Origin: Patescibacteria group bacterium | GTDB lineage: Bacteria > Patescibacteriota > Minisyncoccia > Phycocordibacterales > UBA9973 | Direction of reading: 5' to 3' | Length of the DNA stretch: 39,893 nucleotides | Assembly (NCBI GenBank): GCA_038063515.1 | Contig: JBBTUY010000003.1 | Coordinates: 1-39,893 of the forward strand | Part shown: positions 273-24,792 of the stretch, in pieces | How positions within the stretch are numbered: position 1 is the stretch's first letter | Layout: each line of letters begins with the position of its first letter | The notes under the pieces: model-generated | Seen by the model: only the letters and a program-made list of their open reading frames with translations | The model's database searches: none | Told to the model about the DNA's origin: nothing | Position numbers and translations under genes: made by a program

Positions 273-344
273 TCCGAGGTAGCTCAGCGGTAGAGCGGTC
301 GCCTGTTAAGCGATTGGTCGTAGGTTCGATCCCTACCCTCGGAG
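273..344 (+). tRNA. tRNA-Asn (anticodon GUU)
   Basis: It folds as TCCGAGG-TA-GCTC-AGCGGTA-GAGC-G-GTCGC-CTGTTAA-GCGAT-TGGTC-GTAGG-TTCGATC-CCTAC-CCTCGGA-G. This is a full 72-nt cloverleaf with a GTTCGATC T loop. No CCA is encoded. Confidence 0.95.
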
Positions 345-368
345 CAGATAGCATTACATGGTATTTCT

Positions 369-995: not shown

Positions 996-1073
996 ATAGC
1001 CGATACAAACGTCCTGTTTGTCGTAAAGAAGGTTCGAAGATTGGAAGCCCAGGGGAGCTCGTGAAAACCTTAG

Positions 1074-1101
1074 ACCCACGTAAGTGGGTTTTTGGTTTTT
1101 T
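1074..1101 (+). terminator. Intrinsic terminator after the S51 peptidase gene
   Basis: The stem is acccac/gtgggt with a GTAA tetraloop, followed by tttttggtttttt. It is nested in a longer imperfect hairpin, gagctcgtgaaaacc...ggttttttgagctc. Confidence 0.7.
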
Positions 1102-1298
1102 GAGCTCGGGAGAGAAAGTTAACTGCTTGGCTTTCGAGTAGGGAGGTAAAAGCTTTTGTGTCTTTTTGAAAACTTGTTTGAAAAAAGTACAAAAGGTATA
1201 CTGTTCCTGTAAGGAAAGATTCCCTACCTCCCGAGCATCGAAATTTAACCTTATTATTCAAGGTTTATCTTACCTACCTTAGTAGAAGTTCGAACCTA

Positions 1299-1307
1299 TG
1301 GTATAAT
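1299..1307 (+). promoter_or_regulatory. Extended -10 box TGgTATAAT, 6 nt upstream of ATG 1314
   Basis: The motif was read directly. There is no SD between the box and the ATG. Confidence 0.6.
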
Positions 1308-1313
1308 TAAAAT

Positions 1314-1782: not shown

Positions 1783-1844
1783 ACGTCTTCAAAAACAAAA
1801 TTTCGTTCTAGTATAACAGTAAGAATCATTTTCTAAACTATTAC

Positions 1845-2096
1845 TTATCGATGTATACACCCAGCCCAACAGCACGGTCGGCGCATTCCATCTATAAGTT
1901 TTGATATTGCTTTTTCAATGCGGATGTTTCGTGTCTCTATTTTCTTACCAGAAGTAACCCAGCATATCCATTCATTTCGTGCGAGCGGAGTAGTGTCTTC
2001 CCAGGTACTAAGTGCTTTTTTGTGAGAGATAATAGCATTACCGAGGTCTTTTGGTATTTTATGTACTGTCCCTGTGGCAAGTGTTTTTGTGCTCAT
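1845..2096 (-). CDS. YdeI/OmpD-associated family protein
   Basis: ARNEWICWVTSGKKIETRNIRIEKAISKL and the C-terminal RRPCCWAGCIHR match the conserved core and Cys-rich tail of the YdeI/OmpD-associated (bacteriocin-protection) family, as recalled from memory. Confidence 0.7.
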   Translation of the reverse strand: MSTKTLATGTVHKIPKDLGNAIISHKKALSTWEDTTPLARNEWICWVTSGKKIETRNIRIEKAISKLIDGMRRPCCWAGCIHR

Positions 2097-2102
2097 TATT
2101 TT

Positions 2103-2111
2103 ATTTTATCA
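2103..2111 (-). promoter_or_regulatory. Extended -10 (TGaTAAAAT on the minus strand), 6 nt upstream of ATG 2096
   Basis: The reverse complement of 2097-2111 reads tgataaaat-aaaata followed by ATG. Confidence 0.55.
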
Positions 2112-2288
2112 GAATTTTATATTTTTTGTTTTTTGATTTTGTTCTGTGCTGTGGGGGTCGTGTCGCATAGGTATTGACGGAGGCCGGTAAATAGATCTAT
2201 CCCATACATGAGTATTAAACTATATTTGACAAGCTTATATTTTTTGTTTATTTTTAATCTTGGTTTGTAACAAGAAAGGAGAAAAACC

Positions 2289-2798
2289 ATGAAAATAATC
2301 ATGGTACTATTTGTTGTGTTGTGTTGCCCTTTTATTACGAAAGGGCAACACAACACAGCGCCTGCCTCATGTGAGTCAAGTTTCGAAGTTATGGTGGCCA
2401 GGGCCAACCATGGCTTCGAAACTGAGCTTAGGCTGGCTAAGTGCCTGCCTAAGCATTTTTTTGTGTTCGCCAACCTGAAAGTCAGCGAACACAAAGGCTT
2501 CGACGCCGGACTAAAGTTTCAAGTTCTCCACCAGGAAAGGTGGGAACTTAATCTTTTCTCCGGCCTCGATCACCTCAGCCATAAGGACCGACTTTTTGTT
2601 GGTGCTGAGGCTGAGGTCGAGGCCCGGCGTTTCCGCCTTTCATTAGGCGGTACGCTGGGTGGCCATTTTGGCCGAGCTCTTGAATTTGGGATTCAAACCC
2701 CAAAACTCAAGTGGCTCGGCAACGTACGACTGGGTCCCGTCGTACGTTTCACTCCTCATGGGACCCAATTTTTGGCCAAGGTCAGTCGTAATTTCTAA
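2289..2798 (+). CDS. Hypothetical protein with a signal-peptide-like N terminus; may instead be a spurious ORF across a structured RNA
   Basis: A 169-codon ORF is preceded by AAGGAG (2273-2278) 7-10 nt before the ATG and by TTGACA at 2226-2231. G/C-ending codons are frequent (gcc aac ctg aaa gtc agc gaa). I recognise no family. The whole ORF is tiled with hairpins (see the 2315-2841 entry). Confidence 0.4.
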   Translation: MKIIMVLFVVLCCPFITKGQHNTAPASCESSFEVMVARANHGFETELRLAKCLPKHFFVFANLKVSEHKGFDAGLKFQVLHQERWELNLFSGLDHLSHKDRLFVGAEAEVEARRFRLSLGGTLGGHFGRALEFGIQTPKLKWLGNVRLGPVVRFTPHGTQFLAKVSRNF

Positions 2799-2841
2799 CC
2801 TTGGCCTATGGCGTACGGTAGCTTTGTTTACTGTACGTCAT
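2315..2841 (+). other. Near-contiguous array of at least 10 strong stem-loops in a GC-elevated segment
   Basis: Stems were paired by hand:
- 2315-2332/2340-2357 (18 bp perfect)
- 2380-2388/2414-2422 (9 bp, plus an inner extension)
- 2426-2433/2447-2454 (8 bp)
- 2462-2470/2485-2493 (9 bp)
- 2561-2580/2609-2626 (9+8 bp with bulges)
- 2671-2689/2697-2719 (about 18 bp with bulges)
- 2721-2730/2739-2748 (10 bp perfect)
- 2731-2738/2760-2767 (8 bp, involving the loop of the previous stem)
- 2774-2782/2798-2806 (9 bp perfect)
- 2808-2819/2830-2841 (12 bp with 2 G-U pairs). Confidence 0.7.
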
Positions 2842-2846
2842 TTTTT
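2808..2846 (+). terminator. Intrinsic terminator closing the hairpin module
   Basis: A 12-bp stem (atggcgtacggt / actgtacgtcat, 2 G-U pairs) is followed directly by a run of six T. Confidence 0.65.
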
Positions 2847-2861
2847 ATTTACTTACAAAAA

Positions 2862-2870
2862 TGGTATAAT
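2862..2870 (+). promoter_or_regulatory. Extended -10 TGgTATAAT; unusually followed by a leader of about 50 nt before ATG 2928
   Basis: The motif was read directly. The leader contains the hairpin tccttc...gaagga (2891-2916) and a 13-codon uORF starting at 2909. Confidence 0.5.
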
Positions 2871-2927
2871 ATAAGCATATCAATAATTATTCCTTCGTCG
2901 CCAAGGCTATGAAGGACAAGCATTTCT

Positions 2928-4052
2928 ATGAAAAAATTTATAAAATATAGTTTTCTCGCTCTCATTTTATTTATCCCTATAGTATCTTTTGCTATTGAGT
3001 TTCGTTCTGGAGATCAAGTTTCTGTAAAAAAGGAGGAAGTTATTGCAAATGATCTATACATGGGTGGTAGTAATGCCACAAGCGCAGGTACAATCAACGG
3101 AGATTTGTTTATAGGAGGAGGCAATGTCACAGTCAGTGGTGATGTGTCAGGAGATTTAATGGCTGGTGGTGGTAACGTAAATATTTTATCTACAATAAGT
3201 GACGATTTACGTGTTGGTGGTGGTACTGTAGTACTTTCCGGTAAAGTAGGCGGAGATTTATTAGTAGCTGGTGGGCAAGTTACTTTAAGTGGTGACGGTG
3301 TTGGTGGCGACGCTTCTATGGCAGGAGGAAATATGACAATAGATGCTCCAATACAAGGAGACTTGTCCATAAAAAGTGAGACTGTCTACATCAATTCTCT
3401 GATAGACGGTAATGTAGATATTCATGCACAAAAGATCACTCTAGGTAGCGCAGCACTCATTTCTGGTAATCTTAAGTACATATCTAGGCAAGAGTTAGTA
3501 AATGAAGGAGGGGTAGTAAAGGGTGAGACGACATTTACACAAAAGGTTAGAAAGAATGAAAATAAAAAAGTTCTTCACGCAATATTCGGAGCATTTGTAC
3601 TTTGGAAATTCTTTGCACTTTTAGCTTCTGCACTTGTTATAGGTATGATGCTTAATCGTTATTCTAGGGAAACAGTGGCTATTGCAAAAGAGCGTACCTT
3701 GTATGAATTAGGTAGAGGCTTCCTTGTGTTTGTGGTTATGCCTATAATCTCAATAATATTCTTAGTGACTCTTATAGGTATTCCTTTTAGCATTCTCACA
3801 TTCATAGGCTTTATAGCCATGATGATCTTTGCATGGATCATGGCACCTATTATTTTAGGAAGTGTTGTATATCAATATTTCAGAAAAGGTGAACTCGAGG
3901 TTTCAAGGAAGACTATCATACTTGGGGTTTTACTTTATACAGTATTAGGCTTCATACCACTTGTTGGCTGGCTCTTTAATGCTTGTCTCTTGCTTGTATC
4001 ACTTGGAGCGATGACTTCTCTTAAGCTTAAAGTTTTAAAAGAGTGGAGATAA
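2928..4052 (+). CDS. Membrane protein with an N-terminal signal peptide, a bactofilin-like Gly/Asp beta-helix repeat domain and a C-terminal multi-TM region
   Basis: Repeats of GDLxxGGGNVxVSG type occur at least 7 times (GDLFIGGGNVTVSGDVSGDLMAGGGNVNI...), resembling polymer-forming cytoskeletal (bactofilin) repeats. The C-terminal 150 aa form 4-5 hydrophobic helices. Confidence 0.6.
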   Translation: MKKFIKYSFLALILFIPIVSFAIEFRSGDQVSVKKEEVIANDLYMGGSNATSAGTINGDLFIGGGNVTVSGDVSGDLMAGGGNVNILSTISDDLRVGGGTVVLSGKVGGDLLVAGGQVTLSGDGVGGDASMAGGNMTIDAPIQGDLSIKSETVYINSLIDGNVDIHAQKITLGSAALISGNLKYISRQELVNEGGVVKGETTFTQKVRKNENKKVLHAIFGAFVLWKFFALLASALVIGMMLNRYSRETVAIAKERTLYELGRGFLVFVVMPIISIIFLVTLIGIPFSILTFIGFIAMMIFAWIMAPIILGSVVYQYFRKGELEVSRKTIILGVLLYTVLGFIPLVGWLFNACLLLVSLGAMTSLKLKVLKEWR

Positions 4053-4058
4053 TACTCT

Positions 4059-4454
4059 TTATGTTGTAGGTTGTGCACAGTGAGCACAACGCTTTGCAGC
4101 TATAGCTATTTCCATTAGACACTCATCACATTTTTTTGTCGTAGGCATGTCTTCTTTTTTCATTTTCTTCATGAGCGCATTCATAGGCTTCACAACAAAG
4201 AAGAATATCGCAGAAGCTACAAGTATAAATGAGATAAGTGAATTTAAGAAGTGACCATACATAAATCTGCTCCCATTGATACTAAATGACAGACCGCTAA
4301 AGTCCGGTACTCTTGCGATAGCCGCGATAAGTGGAGTTATAAGGTCTGTTACAAGTGCTGTGACTATAGTTCCAAAAGATGCACCAATCACGACACCGAC
4401 TGCGAGATCCACCACATTTCCTCTGAGTAAAAATTGTTTAAATTCTTTTAACAT
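4059..4454 (-). CDS. mscL: Large-conductance mechanosensitive channel MscL with a C-terminal CxxC...CxxC zinc-ribbon tail
   Basis: MLKEFKQFLLRGNVVDLAVGVVIGASFGTIVTALVTDLITPLI is the canonical MscL TM1 region. The tail reads KKCDECLMEIAIAAKRCAHCAQP. Confidence 0.9.
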   Translation of the reverse strand: MLKEFKQFLLRGNVVDLAVGVVIGASFGTIVTALVTDLITPLIAAIARVPDFSGLSFSINGSRFMYGHFLNSLISFILVASAIFFFVVKPMNALMKKMKKEDMPTTKKCDECLMEIAIAAKRCAHCAQPTT

Positions 4455-4514
4455 ATATTTATTATTATATTTATAATATTTTATTTCTTTTTATCCTAGC
4501 ATGTAGTAGGAAAG

Positions 4515-4523
4515 TTATCCACA
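4515..4523 (+). promoter_or_regulatory. Perfect DnaA-box consensus TTATCCACA in an intergenic region
   Basis: It is an exact 9-mer. A second exact copy lies at 37706-37714 with the same ag prefix. Confidence 0.3.
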
Positions 4524-4593
4524 AAGTAATTTTATTTTTATAAATAATGTGTGTTTCCAAGCTTTTGTTAACTTGTTTACTCTTTGCATTTTT

Positions 4594-4602
4594 TGGTATA
4601 AT
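4594..4602 (+). promoter_or_regulatory. Extended -10 TGgTATAAT, 6 nt upstream of ATG 4609
   Basis: The motif was read directly. This argues for the 4609 start rather than the track start at 4549. Confidence 0.6.
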
Positions 4603-4608
4603 AGGGTT

Positions 4609-5187
4609 ATGGATAATTTTAAATTTATTGTTTTTTCAATCATTACTCTTTCTCTGGTTGGACTTTTTACATATTGGGCATTTAACAGTATTCAGTCAGG
4701 CACAGAGCACAAGATGACTGAGAAAATAGATACACTTCAAAATGAAAATGAAGATTTAAAAGAAGAGAATGAAGACCTGAAAGGTAAGCTTGCAAAATTA
4801 GAAGTGAGTGTGAGTACAGAAGAGCCAGCACCAGTTGTAGAGGAGCCAGTCGTAACCCCTACATCTCCTAAGCCTACTACACCAAAACTTACACCGACTC
4901 CCACCAAACCTACAACTTATAAAAACCAAACACTTATAAATGAATTACAAAAGATGCTAAACGCGGGTACCTCGCTAAAGCTTGGCTCTAGTGGTGCGAG
5001 TGTGGCCAGTGTTCAGAAGTTTCTAAATATCTATAACAAAACTTCAAACAAAGTTGATAATGATTACGGCGAGAGTACAAAGGTAGCAGTAGTAGCATTC
5101 CAAAAAGCTCAAAGCTTGCCTGGTAGTGGCGAAGTCCATAAAGCCACCCTTACTAAGATGGTAGACTGGCTCAAAAAGCAAGGATAG
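4609..5187 (+). CDS. Membrane-anchored protein with a coiled coil, a Pro/Thr linker and a C-terminal peptidoglycan-binding domain (PG_binding_1-like)
   Basis: It has an N-terminal TM helix (FIVFSIITLSLVGLFTYWAF), an ENEDLKEENEDLKGKLAKLE coiled coil and a PT-rich linker. The C terminus, GSSGASVASVQKFLN...DNDYGESTKVAVVAFQKAQSLPGSGEV, matches the PGBD pattern. Confidence 0.7.
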   Translation: MDNFKFIVFSIITLSLVGLFTYWAFNSIQSGTEHKMTEKIDTLQNENEDLKEENEDLKGKLAKLEVSVSTEEPAPVVEEPVVTPTSPKPTTPKLTPTPTKPTTYKNQTLINELQKMLNAGTSLKLGSSGASVASVQKFLNIYNKTSNKVDNDYGESTKVAVVAFQKAQSLPGSGEVHKATLTKMVDWLKKQG

Positions 5188-23411: not shown

Positions 23412-24104
23412 ATGGCTGAAATAATACCCGCGATACTACCTAAAAATTACGAAGACCTAAAGAATAAAATTACACAAATTCATGGACTTGCAAGTTTAGT
23501 TCAGATAGATATTTGCGATGGAATTTTTGTAAAAAGTACTACATGGCCTTTTCCTAAGGATGAGCACTTTCAAAGGATTTTAAATGAACAACAAGGAATG
23601 CCTTTTTGGGAGGACACTGATTTTGAACTTGATCTAATGGTTTGTGATGCAATAGAGAATTTTAATGCTTATTTAAAATTAGGGCCGAAGAGAGTTGTTT
23701 TTCATTTTGGGGCAAGAGATGTACAGAATGATATAGAAGAATTTAAACATTTTCTCGAAGGCATAGATATGTACATTAGAGATTCTATCCGTATAGGTGT
23801 TGCTATTAGTACTAGCACCCCTGTACAGGAGATTTTTCCCTTAGTTAATTATGTTGATTTTGTACAAGTTATGGGGATAAAGAAAATAGGTTATCAGGGT
23901 GAGGAATTTGATTTTAAGTGTTTGGAATACATAAGAAATTTAAAAGAAAAATATTCTGATATTGTAATTTCCGTTGATGGGGGAGTGAACTTGGATACAG
24001 CACCAGCGCTGATTAGCGCCGGTGCTGACTACCTGGTCATAGGCTCCGCTATTTTTAATAGCGGTGATATTGTAGGTACAATAAGGGAGTTTGAGAGTTT
24101 GTAA
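23412..24104 (+). CDS. rpe: Ribulose-phosphate 3-epimerase-like TIM-barrel protein (divergent)
   Basis: IIPAILP...VQIDICDGIFV and the C-terminal VDGGVN...GADYLVIGSAIF match the Rpe pattern. The pentose-phosphate neighbourhood is consistent. Confidence 0.65.
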   Translation: MAEIIPAILPKNYEDLKNKITQIHGLASLVQIDICDGIFVKSTTWPFPKDEHFQRILNEQQGMPFWEDTDFELDLMVCDAIENFNAYLKLGPKRVVFHFGARDVQNDIEEFKHFLEGIDMYIRDSIRIGVAISTSTPVQEIFPLVNYVDFVQVMGIKKIGYQGEEFDFKCLEYIRNLKEKYSDIVISVDGGVNLDTAPALISAGADYLVIGSAIFNSGDIVGTIREFESL

Positions 24105-24110
24105 AAATTT

Positions 24111-24141
24111 AATAACTGTTAGGTCTTGCCTAACAGTTATT
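24111..24141. repeat. REP-like hairpin, left copy (aataaCTGTTAGGtcttgCCTAACAGttatt)
   Basis: The hairpin stem is 13 bp (8 bp within the capitalised core). Its 21-nt core is the exact reverse complement of the core at 24817-24837. Confidence 0.8.
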
Positions 24142-24792
24142 GTTATAAGCAAGCCAATCAAATATTTCTTTTCGAAAAACTTTTTTTGAATTAAAATAAT
24201 TTGGAAAATCTGAAAATTTTAGAATCAACTTTTCTTTTCTGTCTTCCTTCAAATAATCCAAGAAACTAGAGTAGGGATATGTTTTTAGATATTCTAAAGT
24301 TTTTTTAATATTTTTTAAACCATTTTCTCTCCACTTGCTATCGATTAATTTTACAGGATTTAGGTGAATGTAAGAAAATATATATTTTAGTTGATTGTCA
24401 GTGTTTAGATGAACTGATTTAAATTTACCTTCGAAAAGCCCACCAGTTCTTTTGTAAGTTTCATTAAAATACATAGAGTAAGCTGTAGATAGTTTTTGCA
24501 TGAATTTACTTAACCCATCGTCTGTTAAGGGGGTTATTAGTATGTGAAAATGGTTAGGCATTAGACAGTATGCTCCAATAGATACTAGTTGATCTTCTGT
24601 TTTGTGTGCAAATACACCACCAGTTTCTTGTAGGTTAAAGAAATTAAATCTTTCGTTTGTGTTTACCCCATACAAAAGAGCAAGAAAACGCTCGTAATCT
24701 TTTTTCGAGAGAAATATTTTTTGTTTACTATTTCCTCTATTATAAATGTGATAGTATTCACCTTTTACAAATGCGATTTTTCTTATAGACAT
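24130..24792 (-). CDS. IS200/IS605-family Y1 (HUH) transposase, REP-associated tyrosine transposase (RAYT)-like
   Basis: The HUH motif is in CLMPNHFHILI and the catalytic Tyr region in YIHLNPV. At 220 aa it is longer than classical IS200 TnpA, as RAYTs are. Confidence 0.8.
   Translation of the reverse strand: MSIRKIAFVKGEYYHIYNRGNSKQKIFLSKKDYERFLALLYGVNTNERFNFFNLQETGGVFAHKTEDQLVSIGAYCLMPNHFHILITPLTDDGLSKFMQKLSTAYSMYFNETYKRTGGLFEGKFKSVHLNTDNQLKYIFSYIHLNPVKLIDSKWRENGLKNIKKTLEYLKTYPYSSFLDYLKEDRKEKLILKFSDFPNYFNSKKVFRKEIFDWLAYNNNC

Follow-up and report, generated by a model that had tools for sequence, protein, structure and literature searches.

We analysed a stretch of 39,893 nucleotides (nt) from a Patescibacteria group bacterium (GenBank assembly GCA_038063515.1, contig JBBTUY010000003.1, positions 1 to 39,893 of the forward strand; hereafter, the window) and concentrated on a single short gene near its left end. 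This gene encodes a protein of 169 amino acids (aa), and its sense messenger RNA (mRNA) is under purifying selection to fold into local hairpins that follow each other with almost no gaps from the start codon to the terminator. The constraint on the protein and the constraint on the RNA fold are held together across five deeply diverged lineages. That the segment is a real gene with a selected sense-RNA structure is, in our judgement, very probable.

The features of the locus are collected in Table 1. An initial annotation, made from the sequence without database searches, had described the region as a GC-rich island (guanine plus cytosine 52–57%, against about 33% elsewhere) tiled with stem-loops, and had offered two readings, namely a large non-coding RNA (ncRNA) with a spurious open reading frame (ORF), or a horizontally acquired gene whose mRNA or DNA is built from palindromes. 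Its description of the locus held up well. GC content in 200-nt windows is 0.475–0.55 across 2301–2800 and 0.30–0.40 in both flanks; the 169-codon ORF, the TTGACA box and the Shine-Dalgarno (SD) sequence are all where it had placed them; and every stem on its list was recovered at the position given, including the 18-base-pair (bp) hairpin within the putative signal-peptide codons. From the promoter consensus, transcription is predicted to start near 2261 and to yield a monocistronic transcript of ~590 nt.

Table 1. Features of the hairpin-rich gene in the window; consensus helices are those of the five-lineage alignment described in the text.
Feature	Position	Strand	Details
Promoter	2226–2254	+	sigma-70-like TTGACA-17 nt-TATTTT, 10/12 consensus matches; consensus match only
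Shine-Dalgarno sequence	2275–2281	+	AAAGGAG, 7 nt before ATG at 2289
Start-codon hairpin	2286–2305	+	7 bp; fold of window transcript
Coding sequence (CDS)	2289–2798	+	169 aa; signal-peptide-like N-terminus, two conserved Cys, ten predicted beta-strands
21-bp stem	2313–2359	+	18-bp perfect core 2315–2332 / 2340–2357; inside signal-peptide codons
Hairpin	2379–2423	+	arms 2379–2395 / 2407–2423, 17 nt at 88%
Hairpin	2426–2454	+	over codons LRLAKCLPKH; 2426–2437 / 2443–2454, 12 nt at 92%
Hairpin	2460–2495	+	over codons FANLKVSEH; 11-bp perfect, 2460–2470 / 2485–2495
Long imperfect stem-loop	2496–2569	+	conserved apical hairpin 2523–2548
Stem-loop	2570–2624	+	9-bp perfect stem 2572–2580 / 2609–2617; consensus helix 10
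Stem-loop	2626–2660	+	over codons FRLSLGGTLGG; window fold; consensus helices 12–13
Bulged stem	2671–2720	+	~20 bp; seen in minimum free energy (MFE) fold; consensus helix 14
Hairpin	2721–2748	+	9–10-bp stem, loop UGGGUCCC at 2731–2738; 2721–2733 / 2736–2748, 13 nt at 92%
Complement of loop 2731–2738	2760–2767	+	GGGACCCA; perfect 8-nt complementarity
Hairpin spanning stop codon	2774–2806	+	2774–2785 / 2795–2806, 12 nt at 92%; consensus helix 17
Intrinsic terminator	2808–2851	+	14-pair stem 2808–2841, then T run TTTTTATTTA

Coding evidence and the encoded protein

Protein searches retrieved a 99% identical copy (L002) on a syntenic Hainich groundwater contig and a 51% identical protein (L001) on a metagenome-assembled genome contig from NCBI, and an exhaustive HMMER search together with two profile searches added L003, L006 and L007. 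Five lineages were compared, namely the window (with L002), L001, L003, L006 and L007; L003 is identical in the gene region to two further records, L004 and L005, and only the L007 record carries a taxon label, Candidatus Saccharibacteria. The family is small. When 1.84 billion representatives were searched in full with HMMER, alongside three word-indexed searches, it came out as only five 90% clusters among 5.8 billion and two 50% clusters among the representatives. Scans of genome and metagenome contigs with a three-sequence alignment gave no match, and a second round of such scans re-found only L007 (as L008) and L003 (as L009).

The frame is open in every lineage, with ORFs of 169, 176, 174, 173 and 175 aa at 39–53% aa identity, and all indels among them are multiples of three. 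SD-type boxes, (A)AGGAG or AAGGA, lie 7–9 nt upstream of each start; by inspection, all five N-termini consist of a K/R region, 12–15 hydrophobic residues and small residues before Q, and two cysteines are conserved throughout. The public call in L006 is truncated (132 aa, start 4223), and the full ORF there, at 4100–4621, has 173 aa with an SD sequence and a signal peptide. Substitutions are most frequent at codon position 3, then at position 1 and then at position 2; position 3 differs most in all 10 pairwise comparisons (for example 60/43/91 for positions 1, 2 and 3), and the ratio of nonsynonymous to synonymous substitution rates (dN/dS) between lineages is 0.20–0.31, with dS values of 0.8–1.9 that are near saturation. 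The test of 3-nt periodicity suggested in the initial annotation thus comes out on the side of a translated frame.

Structure prediction of the translation, also suggested there, returned a coherent all-beta model from only five sequences. AlphaFold2 gave a predicted local distance difference test score (pLDDT) of 75.9 and a predicted template modelling score (pTM) of 0.66 for a helical signal peptide followed by a ten-strand up-and-down meander. Every top-ranked Foldseek structure is a small transmembrane beta-barrel (invasin beta-domain, KdgM, designed TMB10 barrels), with modest scores (E 1e-4 to 1e-3, TM-scores 0.47–0.57), and the predicted strands alternate hydrophobic and polar residues, a pattern that fits a membrane barrel or a soluble barrel. 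The product is modelled as a small exported protein of ~150 residues after removal of the signal peptide, with a predicted 10-strand beta-meander or barrel as its probable fold class. Like the KdgM/NanC porins, the invasin/intimin beta-domain and TMB10, it would place about ten amphipathic strands in an up-and-down meander behind a signal peptide; unlike these small transmembrane barrels, it has no sequence-profile similarity to them and ends in Phe in only two of the five lineages. Saccharibacteria are considered to lack an outer membrane and BAM.

Profile searches of the protein against Pfam, NCBIfam, PHROG and PDB sequences found no match (for Pfam, NCBIfam and PDB even at E 1–10). Searches for a known RNA family gave a similar outcome. 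With Rfam 15 at permissive E on 1800–3300, the best scores were 18–26 bits against gathering thresholds of 47–100, all at E of at least 0.087, and at the gathering threshold the whole window yielded tRNAs only. This agrees with the initial annotation, which had seen no signature of RNase P, tmRNA, SRP, 6S or group I/II introns; the covariance models of OLE, GOLLD, ROOL, HEARO and raiA likewise gave no Rfam 15 match near gathering score.

Hairpins along the whole message

The folding excess over chance is large. The MFE of 2289–2850 as RNA is -294.2 kcal/mol, compared to -169.7 ± 6.7 kcal/mol for dinucleotide shuffles (z = -18.6, none of 100 as good), so the shuffled control named in the initial annotation leaves the native fold far below its expectation. 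Of perfect local stems with 8 bp or more, the region has 11 distinct ones, whereas 2000 shuffles averaged 0.28 and never exceeded 3; the earlier rough estimate of about 0.1 such hairpins per 500 nt was of the correct order. In the rest of the window, 558-nt tiles contain 0–3 such stems, except for the tile that overlaps the region and has 10. When the 40-kb window was scanned in 150-nt sliding segments, the top six z-scores all fell in this region, as did seven of the eight most negative ones. Mean unpaired probability over the CDS is 0.27–0.30 in the five lineages, and ~70% of the nucleotides of the mRNA are paired.

The excess recurs across the family and holds against controls with the same protein sequence. 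Compared to 40 synonymous-codon shuffles, a control which preserves protein, codon usage and GC content, the CDS gave z = -10.8, -10.2, -11.7, -8.7 and -10.5 in the five lineages, and in the window, L001, L003 and L006 no other part of the locus deviates as strongly in structure as this gene. In homologous loci the GC content of the gene is 0.50–0.54 and that of the flanks 0.37–0.44. This raised GC content is due to the stems; it is a family trait in every host and not a signature of foreign DNA.

An alignment of the five transcripts (A6) yielded a consensus of 172 pairs in 20 helices. Standard pairs are formed by 86.6% of consensus cells, compared to 36–46% when the 3' partners are slid by 1–3 columns, and 52 of the 172 pairs are changed on both sides, compared to 27.7 ± 3.5 in column shuffles (0 of 500 reaching the observed number) and 11–22 in the slid controls. 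These compensatory changes occur without frameshifts or stops in the five lineages. The initial annotation had set out its refutation tests as if preserved stems and codon-periodic change were mutually exclusive; in fact both constraints hold, and the stems are kept alongside codon-periodic substitution.

Conservation can be followed from helix to helix. In the hairpin at 2379–2423 (helix 4, 86.7% of cells paired), the apical 9 bp with their AUGG.../...CCAU core are kept in all five lineages. Its neighbour at 2426–2454 (helix 6, with 3 of 7 pairs changed on both sides) is retained with a different sequence, even where the peptide differs, as in L006 and L007. The hairpin at 2460–2495 corresponds to helix 7 (14 pairs, 89.9% paired, 4 compensatory) and the long stem-loop at 2496–2569 to helices 8–9 (87.7% and 93.3% paired). 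For the stem-loop at 2570–2624, an alternative 8-bp perfect pairing joins 2562–2569 to 2617–2624. The bulged stem at 2671–2720 is the best-conserved helix, with 20 pairs, 94.4% paired and 4 compensatory, and the hairpin at 2721–2748 is 97.8% paired across lineages with 3 compensatory pairs.

Two elements near the 3' end deserve separate description. The loop of the 2721–2748 hairpin (tgggtccc), which the initial annotation had recognised as complementary to 2760–2767, indeed keeps this complementarity in all five lineages, with 92.5% of cells paired and one double change from U-A to C-G. Since the linkers have zero length, the two segments may form an H-type pseudoknot or may be a mutually exclusive alternative to the hairpin; the MFE structure of L006 uses the 2760–2767-type pairing instead of the hairpin. 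In the stop-codon hairpin, the untranslated 3' arm follows the changes of the coding 5' arm from lineage to lineage: 5' GGTCAG faces 3' CTAACC in the window, GATCAG faces CTGATT in L001, GCTCAG faces CTGAGC in L003 and GGTCAC faces GTGACC in L006. An equivalent of the terminator hairpin is present in each of the five lineages (helices 18–20), and 8 of the 13 pairs show compensatory changes.

In the alignment fold, the purine-rich SD region (window 2268–2277) is also paired to the U-rich tail of the terminator (2841–2850). This is consensus helix 1, with 84% of cells paired and 3 compensatory pairs; it could equally be a 5'–3' closing of the message, as in the fold-back inhibition of hok mRNA, or trivial pairing of A-rich with U-rich sequence.

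Helices hold their positions over the C-terminal two-thirds of the protein, where the peptide is conserved and compensatory change maintains the pairing. Over the poorly conserved N-terminal third each lineage has strong stems of its own at non-homologous positions. The stem at 2313–2359 is lineage-specific, with different strong hairpins at that place in the other lineages. Of the 180 pairs of the window MFE structure, 71 are disrupted at the corresponding sites of L001; most of these belong to the N-terminal region, where L001 is as structured as the window by means of other stems. Because these stems are non-homologous yet equally strong, selection seems to be for hairpin coverage rather than for one defined RNA architecture. 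The window and L002 differ across 2189–2900 by a single substitution, G2326T, which in L002 replaces Cys13 of the signal peptide by Phe and disrupts a base pair in the perfect 18-bp stem.

Three further regularities were considered and rejected. Pairing has no preferred codon register, such as position 3 with position 3, that would make covariation free of coding cost, the classes of paired codon positions being mixed, with 42 of (2,3), 36 of (1,3), 19 of (1,1), 16 of (1,2), 16 of (2,2) and 7 of (3,3). RNA hairpins are not colinear with beta-hairpins: apical loops of the window's MFE hairpins lie on average ~4 residues from the nearest predicted beta-turn, a distance expected from random placement at ~14-residue spacing. 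A candidate -1 frameshift site (C CCA AAA) upstream of the pseudoknot is, by eye, not conserved in L001.

Since the stems are palindromes, both strands fold well (z = -18.6 for the sense and -16.1 for the antisense strand), and we asked at which level selection acts. The sense MFE is below the antisense MFE by 11–43 kcal/mol in all five lineages. Each transcript was then folded with G·U forbidden, and single mismatches inside helices were classified. If only DNA symmetry mattered, transitions in Watson-Crick pairs would yield G·U and A·C equally; instead, 17 G·U were found against 1 A·C, and 110 against 24 in the consensus structure. From the 17:1 asymmetry we conclude that selection acts on the sense transcript and not on DNA palindromes.

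Genomic surroundings

In four lineages the gene occupies a conserved block that runs L25, SLT, (L31), RF-1, the hairpin-rich gene, RRM_1 and then ATP synthase genes. In the window and L002 its neighbours are an OmdA-family gene on one side and a DUF8173 gene on the other, with mscL nearby, and homologues of the RRM, RF-1 and SLT genes are absent from the 40-kb window. Given this difference in context, the gene has been moved or transferred once. The RRM_1 protein encoded next in the four lineages (L001 6532–7109, L003 6526–7086, L006 4622–5165, L007 3320–3900) has a glycine-rich tail, and its gene carries, by eye, a structured leader of ~120 nt (z-scores of -4.7 to -5.3 for segments in L001, L003 and L006). 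Its link to the hairpin-rich mRNA is an unproven one, a synteny observation in four lineages.

The downstream gene in the window, at 2928–4052 (+), has a product of 374 aa. This protein carries a signal peptide, contains many G-rich 'GGxxxxxG(D)' repeats and ends in a multi-pass membrane domain. DUF8173 is recorded for the identical gene of L002, and our Pfam scan gave no match above threshold; over the G-rich repeats the GC skew is strongly positive, reaching 0.52.

Two other structured sites were noted in the window. A 318-nt gap at 996–1313 (+), between a Peptidase_S51 ORF (378–995) and an ORF with sigma-70 region 4 only (1314–1583), has a folding energy of -101.3 kcal/mol (z = -6.1 relative to dinucleotide-shuffled controls) and no meaningful Rfam match; it may represent an ncRNA that escaped annotation or a long structured leader. 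The site at 24001–24140 ranks second in the window for structure (z about -5.9). It includes a hairpin within the 3'-terminal part of an ORF for ribulose-phosphate 3-epimerase (23412–24104) and a ~13-bp palindrome at ~24107–24139, between the epimerase ORF and a convergent IS200-like Y1 transposase ORF (24130–24792, -); the palindrome is probably a bidirectional terminator or a transposon-end hairpin. A partial tRNA lies at the window edge (1–55, -), and a tRNA-Asn(GTT) at 273–345 (+), just upstream of the Peptidase_S51 gene.

Proposed purpose of the hairpins

The explanation that best accounts for the observations as a whole is a coding gene with a hairpin-armoured, long-lived and slowly translated mRNA, to which we give about an even chance; that stability and throttling are what the hairpins serve is a more tentative proposal. 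Armour of this kind would leave few single-stranded A/U-rich stretches and so would shield the message from single-strand-specific endonucleases, and hairpins capping both transcript ends would block decay that depends on the 5' or the 3' end. Hairpins over the initiation region, and those that must be unwound codon by codon, would slow ribosome loading and movement. Together these effects would give an mRNA that persists and is translated slowly, as suits a tiny, ribosome-poor cell. In support of throttling, the unpaired probability of the initiation region (-4 to +15) is only 0.36 in the window and 0.21–0.40 across the five lineages, close to the CDS mean. More structure in a CDS is said to lengthen functional mRNA half-life, as Mauger and colleagues reportedly found in 2019, and the lpp and ompA mRNAs of Escherichia coli are unusually stable and hairpin-rich.

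Several points weigh against this proposal or against the evidence beneath it. The consensus was scored on its own source sequences, which inflates the paired-cell measure, and five lineages give covariation without per-pair significance. The pairwise synonymous difference is 0.44 in stems and 0.56 in loops, so that stems are weakly more conserved, a trend in the expected direction from too small a sample (n = 27 and 14). The message of an abundant protein would normally stay open at its initiation region, which here is not open, and perfect stems of 18–21 bp are potential RNase III substrates that would destabilise the message. The property is found in a single gene in ~65 kb of examined sequence. 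A general need of ribosome-poor cells for stable mRNAs does not account for an effect confined to one gene, and all functional readings share a main weakness in that they give no reason why only this gene should require it.

Among the alternatives, the ~590-nt transcript could be bifunctional, serving as an mRNA and also doing a job of its own as a scaffold, a sponge for RNA-binding or double-stranded RNA-binding proteins, or a regulator. Structure conserved with covariation over deep divergence, the pseudoknot-type pairing of a loop with downstream sequence in all five lineages, a size and helix count within the range of large bacterial ncRNAs, an initiation region that is not kept open and the RRM RNA-binding protein encoded next door in four lineages all speak for such a role; we nevertheless consider it unlikely, as the non-homologous hairpins of the N-terminal third look more like generic coverage than like a defined architecture, nucleotide conservation peaks where peptide blocks are best conserved, no conserved unpaired motif can be separated from coding constraint, and the window lineage has neither a nearby RRM gene nor an Rfam match. 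Similarly doubtful is a related idea, in which a structured RNA of OLE/ROOL size with its own, still selected function co-encodes the beta-barrel protein or was its birthplace de novo, so that a lineage-restricted gene would have arisen from a hairpin-rich RNA. It is left room by the covarying structure, the conserved pseudoknot-type contact, the orphan family and an initiation region that is not kept open. Among protein classes, palindromic coding would be easiest to reconcile with an amphipathic beta-meander, because alternating hydrophobic and polar codons stay alternating when reverse-complemented. A conditional translational switch, comparable to type I toxin mRNAs such as hok or tisB, is in our view improbable. 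Here the hairpins would prevent synthesis of a potentially harmful pore-like protein for as long as the message is not opened by a helicase or RNA chaperone, by a change of temperature or by RNase processing. The SD and start region are partly paired, the SD region pairs with the U-rich terminator tail in helix 1 and the predicted fold resembles membrane beta-barrels, but pairing of an A-rich SD with a U tail is expected for almost any terminator, and SD sequestration would not need hairpins along the whole CDS. The product, moreover, is a 169-aa protein with a Sec-type signal peptide and not a hydrophobic toxin peptide of <60 aa, and the locus yielded neither an antisense RNA gene nor a conserved antisense promoter, the one minus-strand 9/12 match being at chance frequency.

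Two alternatives raised in the initial annotation, DNA-level palindromes and a large ncRNA with a spurious ORF, fare worse. Palindromes that exist at the DNA level, as products of template switching or relics of mobile or foreign elements with RNA folding irrelevant, would be consistent with the strong folding of both strands, with the perfection of several stems and with a genomic context in the window that differs from the other four lineages. We think this highly improbable in view of the 17:1 ratio of G·U to A·C in helices where neither was allowed as a pair, the greater stability of the sense strand in every lineage and the stable synteny in four lineages. The hairpin sequences have no other copies in the 40-kb window (blastn-short returned only self matches and chance 11–15-mers), no direct-repeat family was found inside the region, and a profile scan found no relatives on viral contigs, nor was there a PHROG match. 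An origin from repetitive extragenic palindromic (REP) sequences, Rickettsia palindromic elements (RPEs) or miniature inverted-repeat transposable elements (MITEs) was rejected on the absence of other copies in the window and of an internal repeat family; such elements do resemble the gene in being palindromic DNA translated within an ORF, but they are multi-copy mobile repeats, whereas the stems here are all different, single-copy and selected at the RNA level. Of the palindrome-built gene, then, the mRNA version stands, the DNA version is disfavoured and horizontal acquisition is not supported. To an unrecognised large ncRNA with a spurious ORF we attach almost no credence. Its classic signals are all present (extreme folding z-score, covariation and a GC island in an AT-rich genome), and its claim of a real, selected RNA structure survives; the ORF, however, is conserved and selected. 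The spurious-ORF part is refuted by a frame that stays open in five lineages at 39–53% aa identity, indels in multiples of three, codon-periodic change and dN/dS of 0.2–0.3, and it is further opposed by the conserved SD, signal peptide and Cys pair and by the all-beta AlphaFold model (pLDDT 75.9).

Known systems share parts of what we describe. The lpp and ompA mRNAs of E. coli are, like this one, monocistronic messages for small exported envelope-type proteins with multiple stable stem-loops, including terminal ones, and their structure is thought to confer a long half-life. Here, by contrast, hairpins tile the entire CDS in ~20 helices, about 10 standard deviations beyond synonymous shuffles and with compensatory change; to our knowledge, a comparable degree of CDS structure is not documented for lpp or ompA, to which there is no sequence relationship. 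Pervasive pairing through coding sequence, with coding and folding superimposed, is familiar from positive-strand RNA viruses and single-stranded RNA phages such as MS2; the present case is a chromosomal gene of a DNA genome, with synteny in four lineages and no viral relatives. Dual-function RNAs such as RNAIII/hld of Staphylococcus aureus, SgrS/SgrT and SR1/SR1P are also many-hairpin transcripts of ~0.5 kb that encode a protein, but they have a short ORF and separate regulatory domains, whereas here the ORF fills the whole transcript. OLE, GOLLD, ROOL, HEARO and raiA RNAs are alike in size, GC contrast, number of helices and covariation, and differ in that our gene has a conserved, selected ORF and simple local hairpins, with no coding-independent junctions or loops identified. 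Type I toxin mRNAs such as hok and tisB differ in having a short toxin ORF (<60 aa) and an antisense RNA, in place of a 169-aa ORF with a signal peptide.

As a rule, bacterial mRNAs carry functional RNA structure only in leaders, terminators or short internal elements. Such structure is known as such, and what is new here is its extension over a whole bacterial CDS, held by covariation; we know of no described cellular gene whose entire CDS is kept in covarying hairpins. If confirmed, the gene would be a warning to ncRNA pipelines that take a GC-rich island plus covariation as proof of non-coding function, and an equal warning to gene callers that stop once an ORF is found. The protein is of interest in itself, as an orphan with a predicted membrane-barrel-like fold and one homologue labelled Saccharibacteria, a group thought to be without an outer membrane. 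On the same condition, the gene would offer a natural test case for superimposing protein and RNA-fold constraints, and a compact model of structure-based control of mRNA lifetime and translation in the ultra-small, ribosome-poor bacteria of the Candidate Phyla Radiation.

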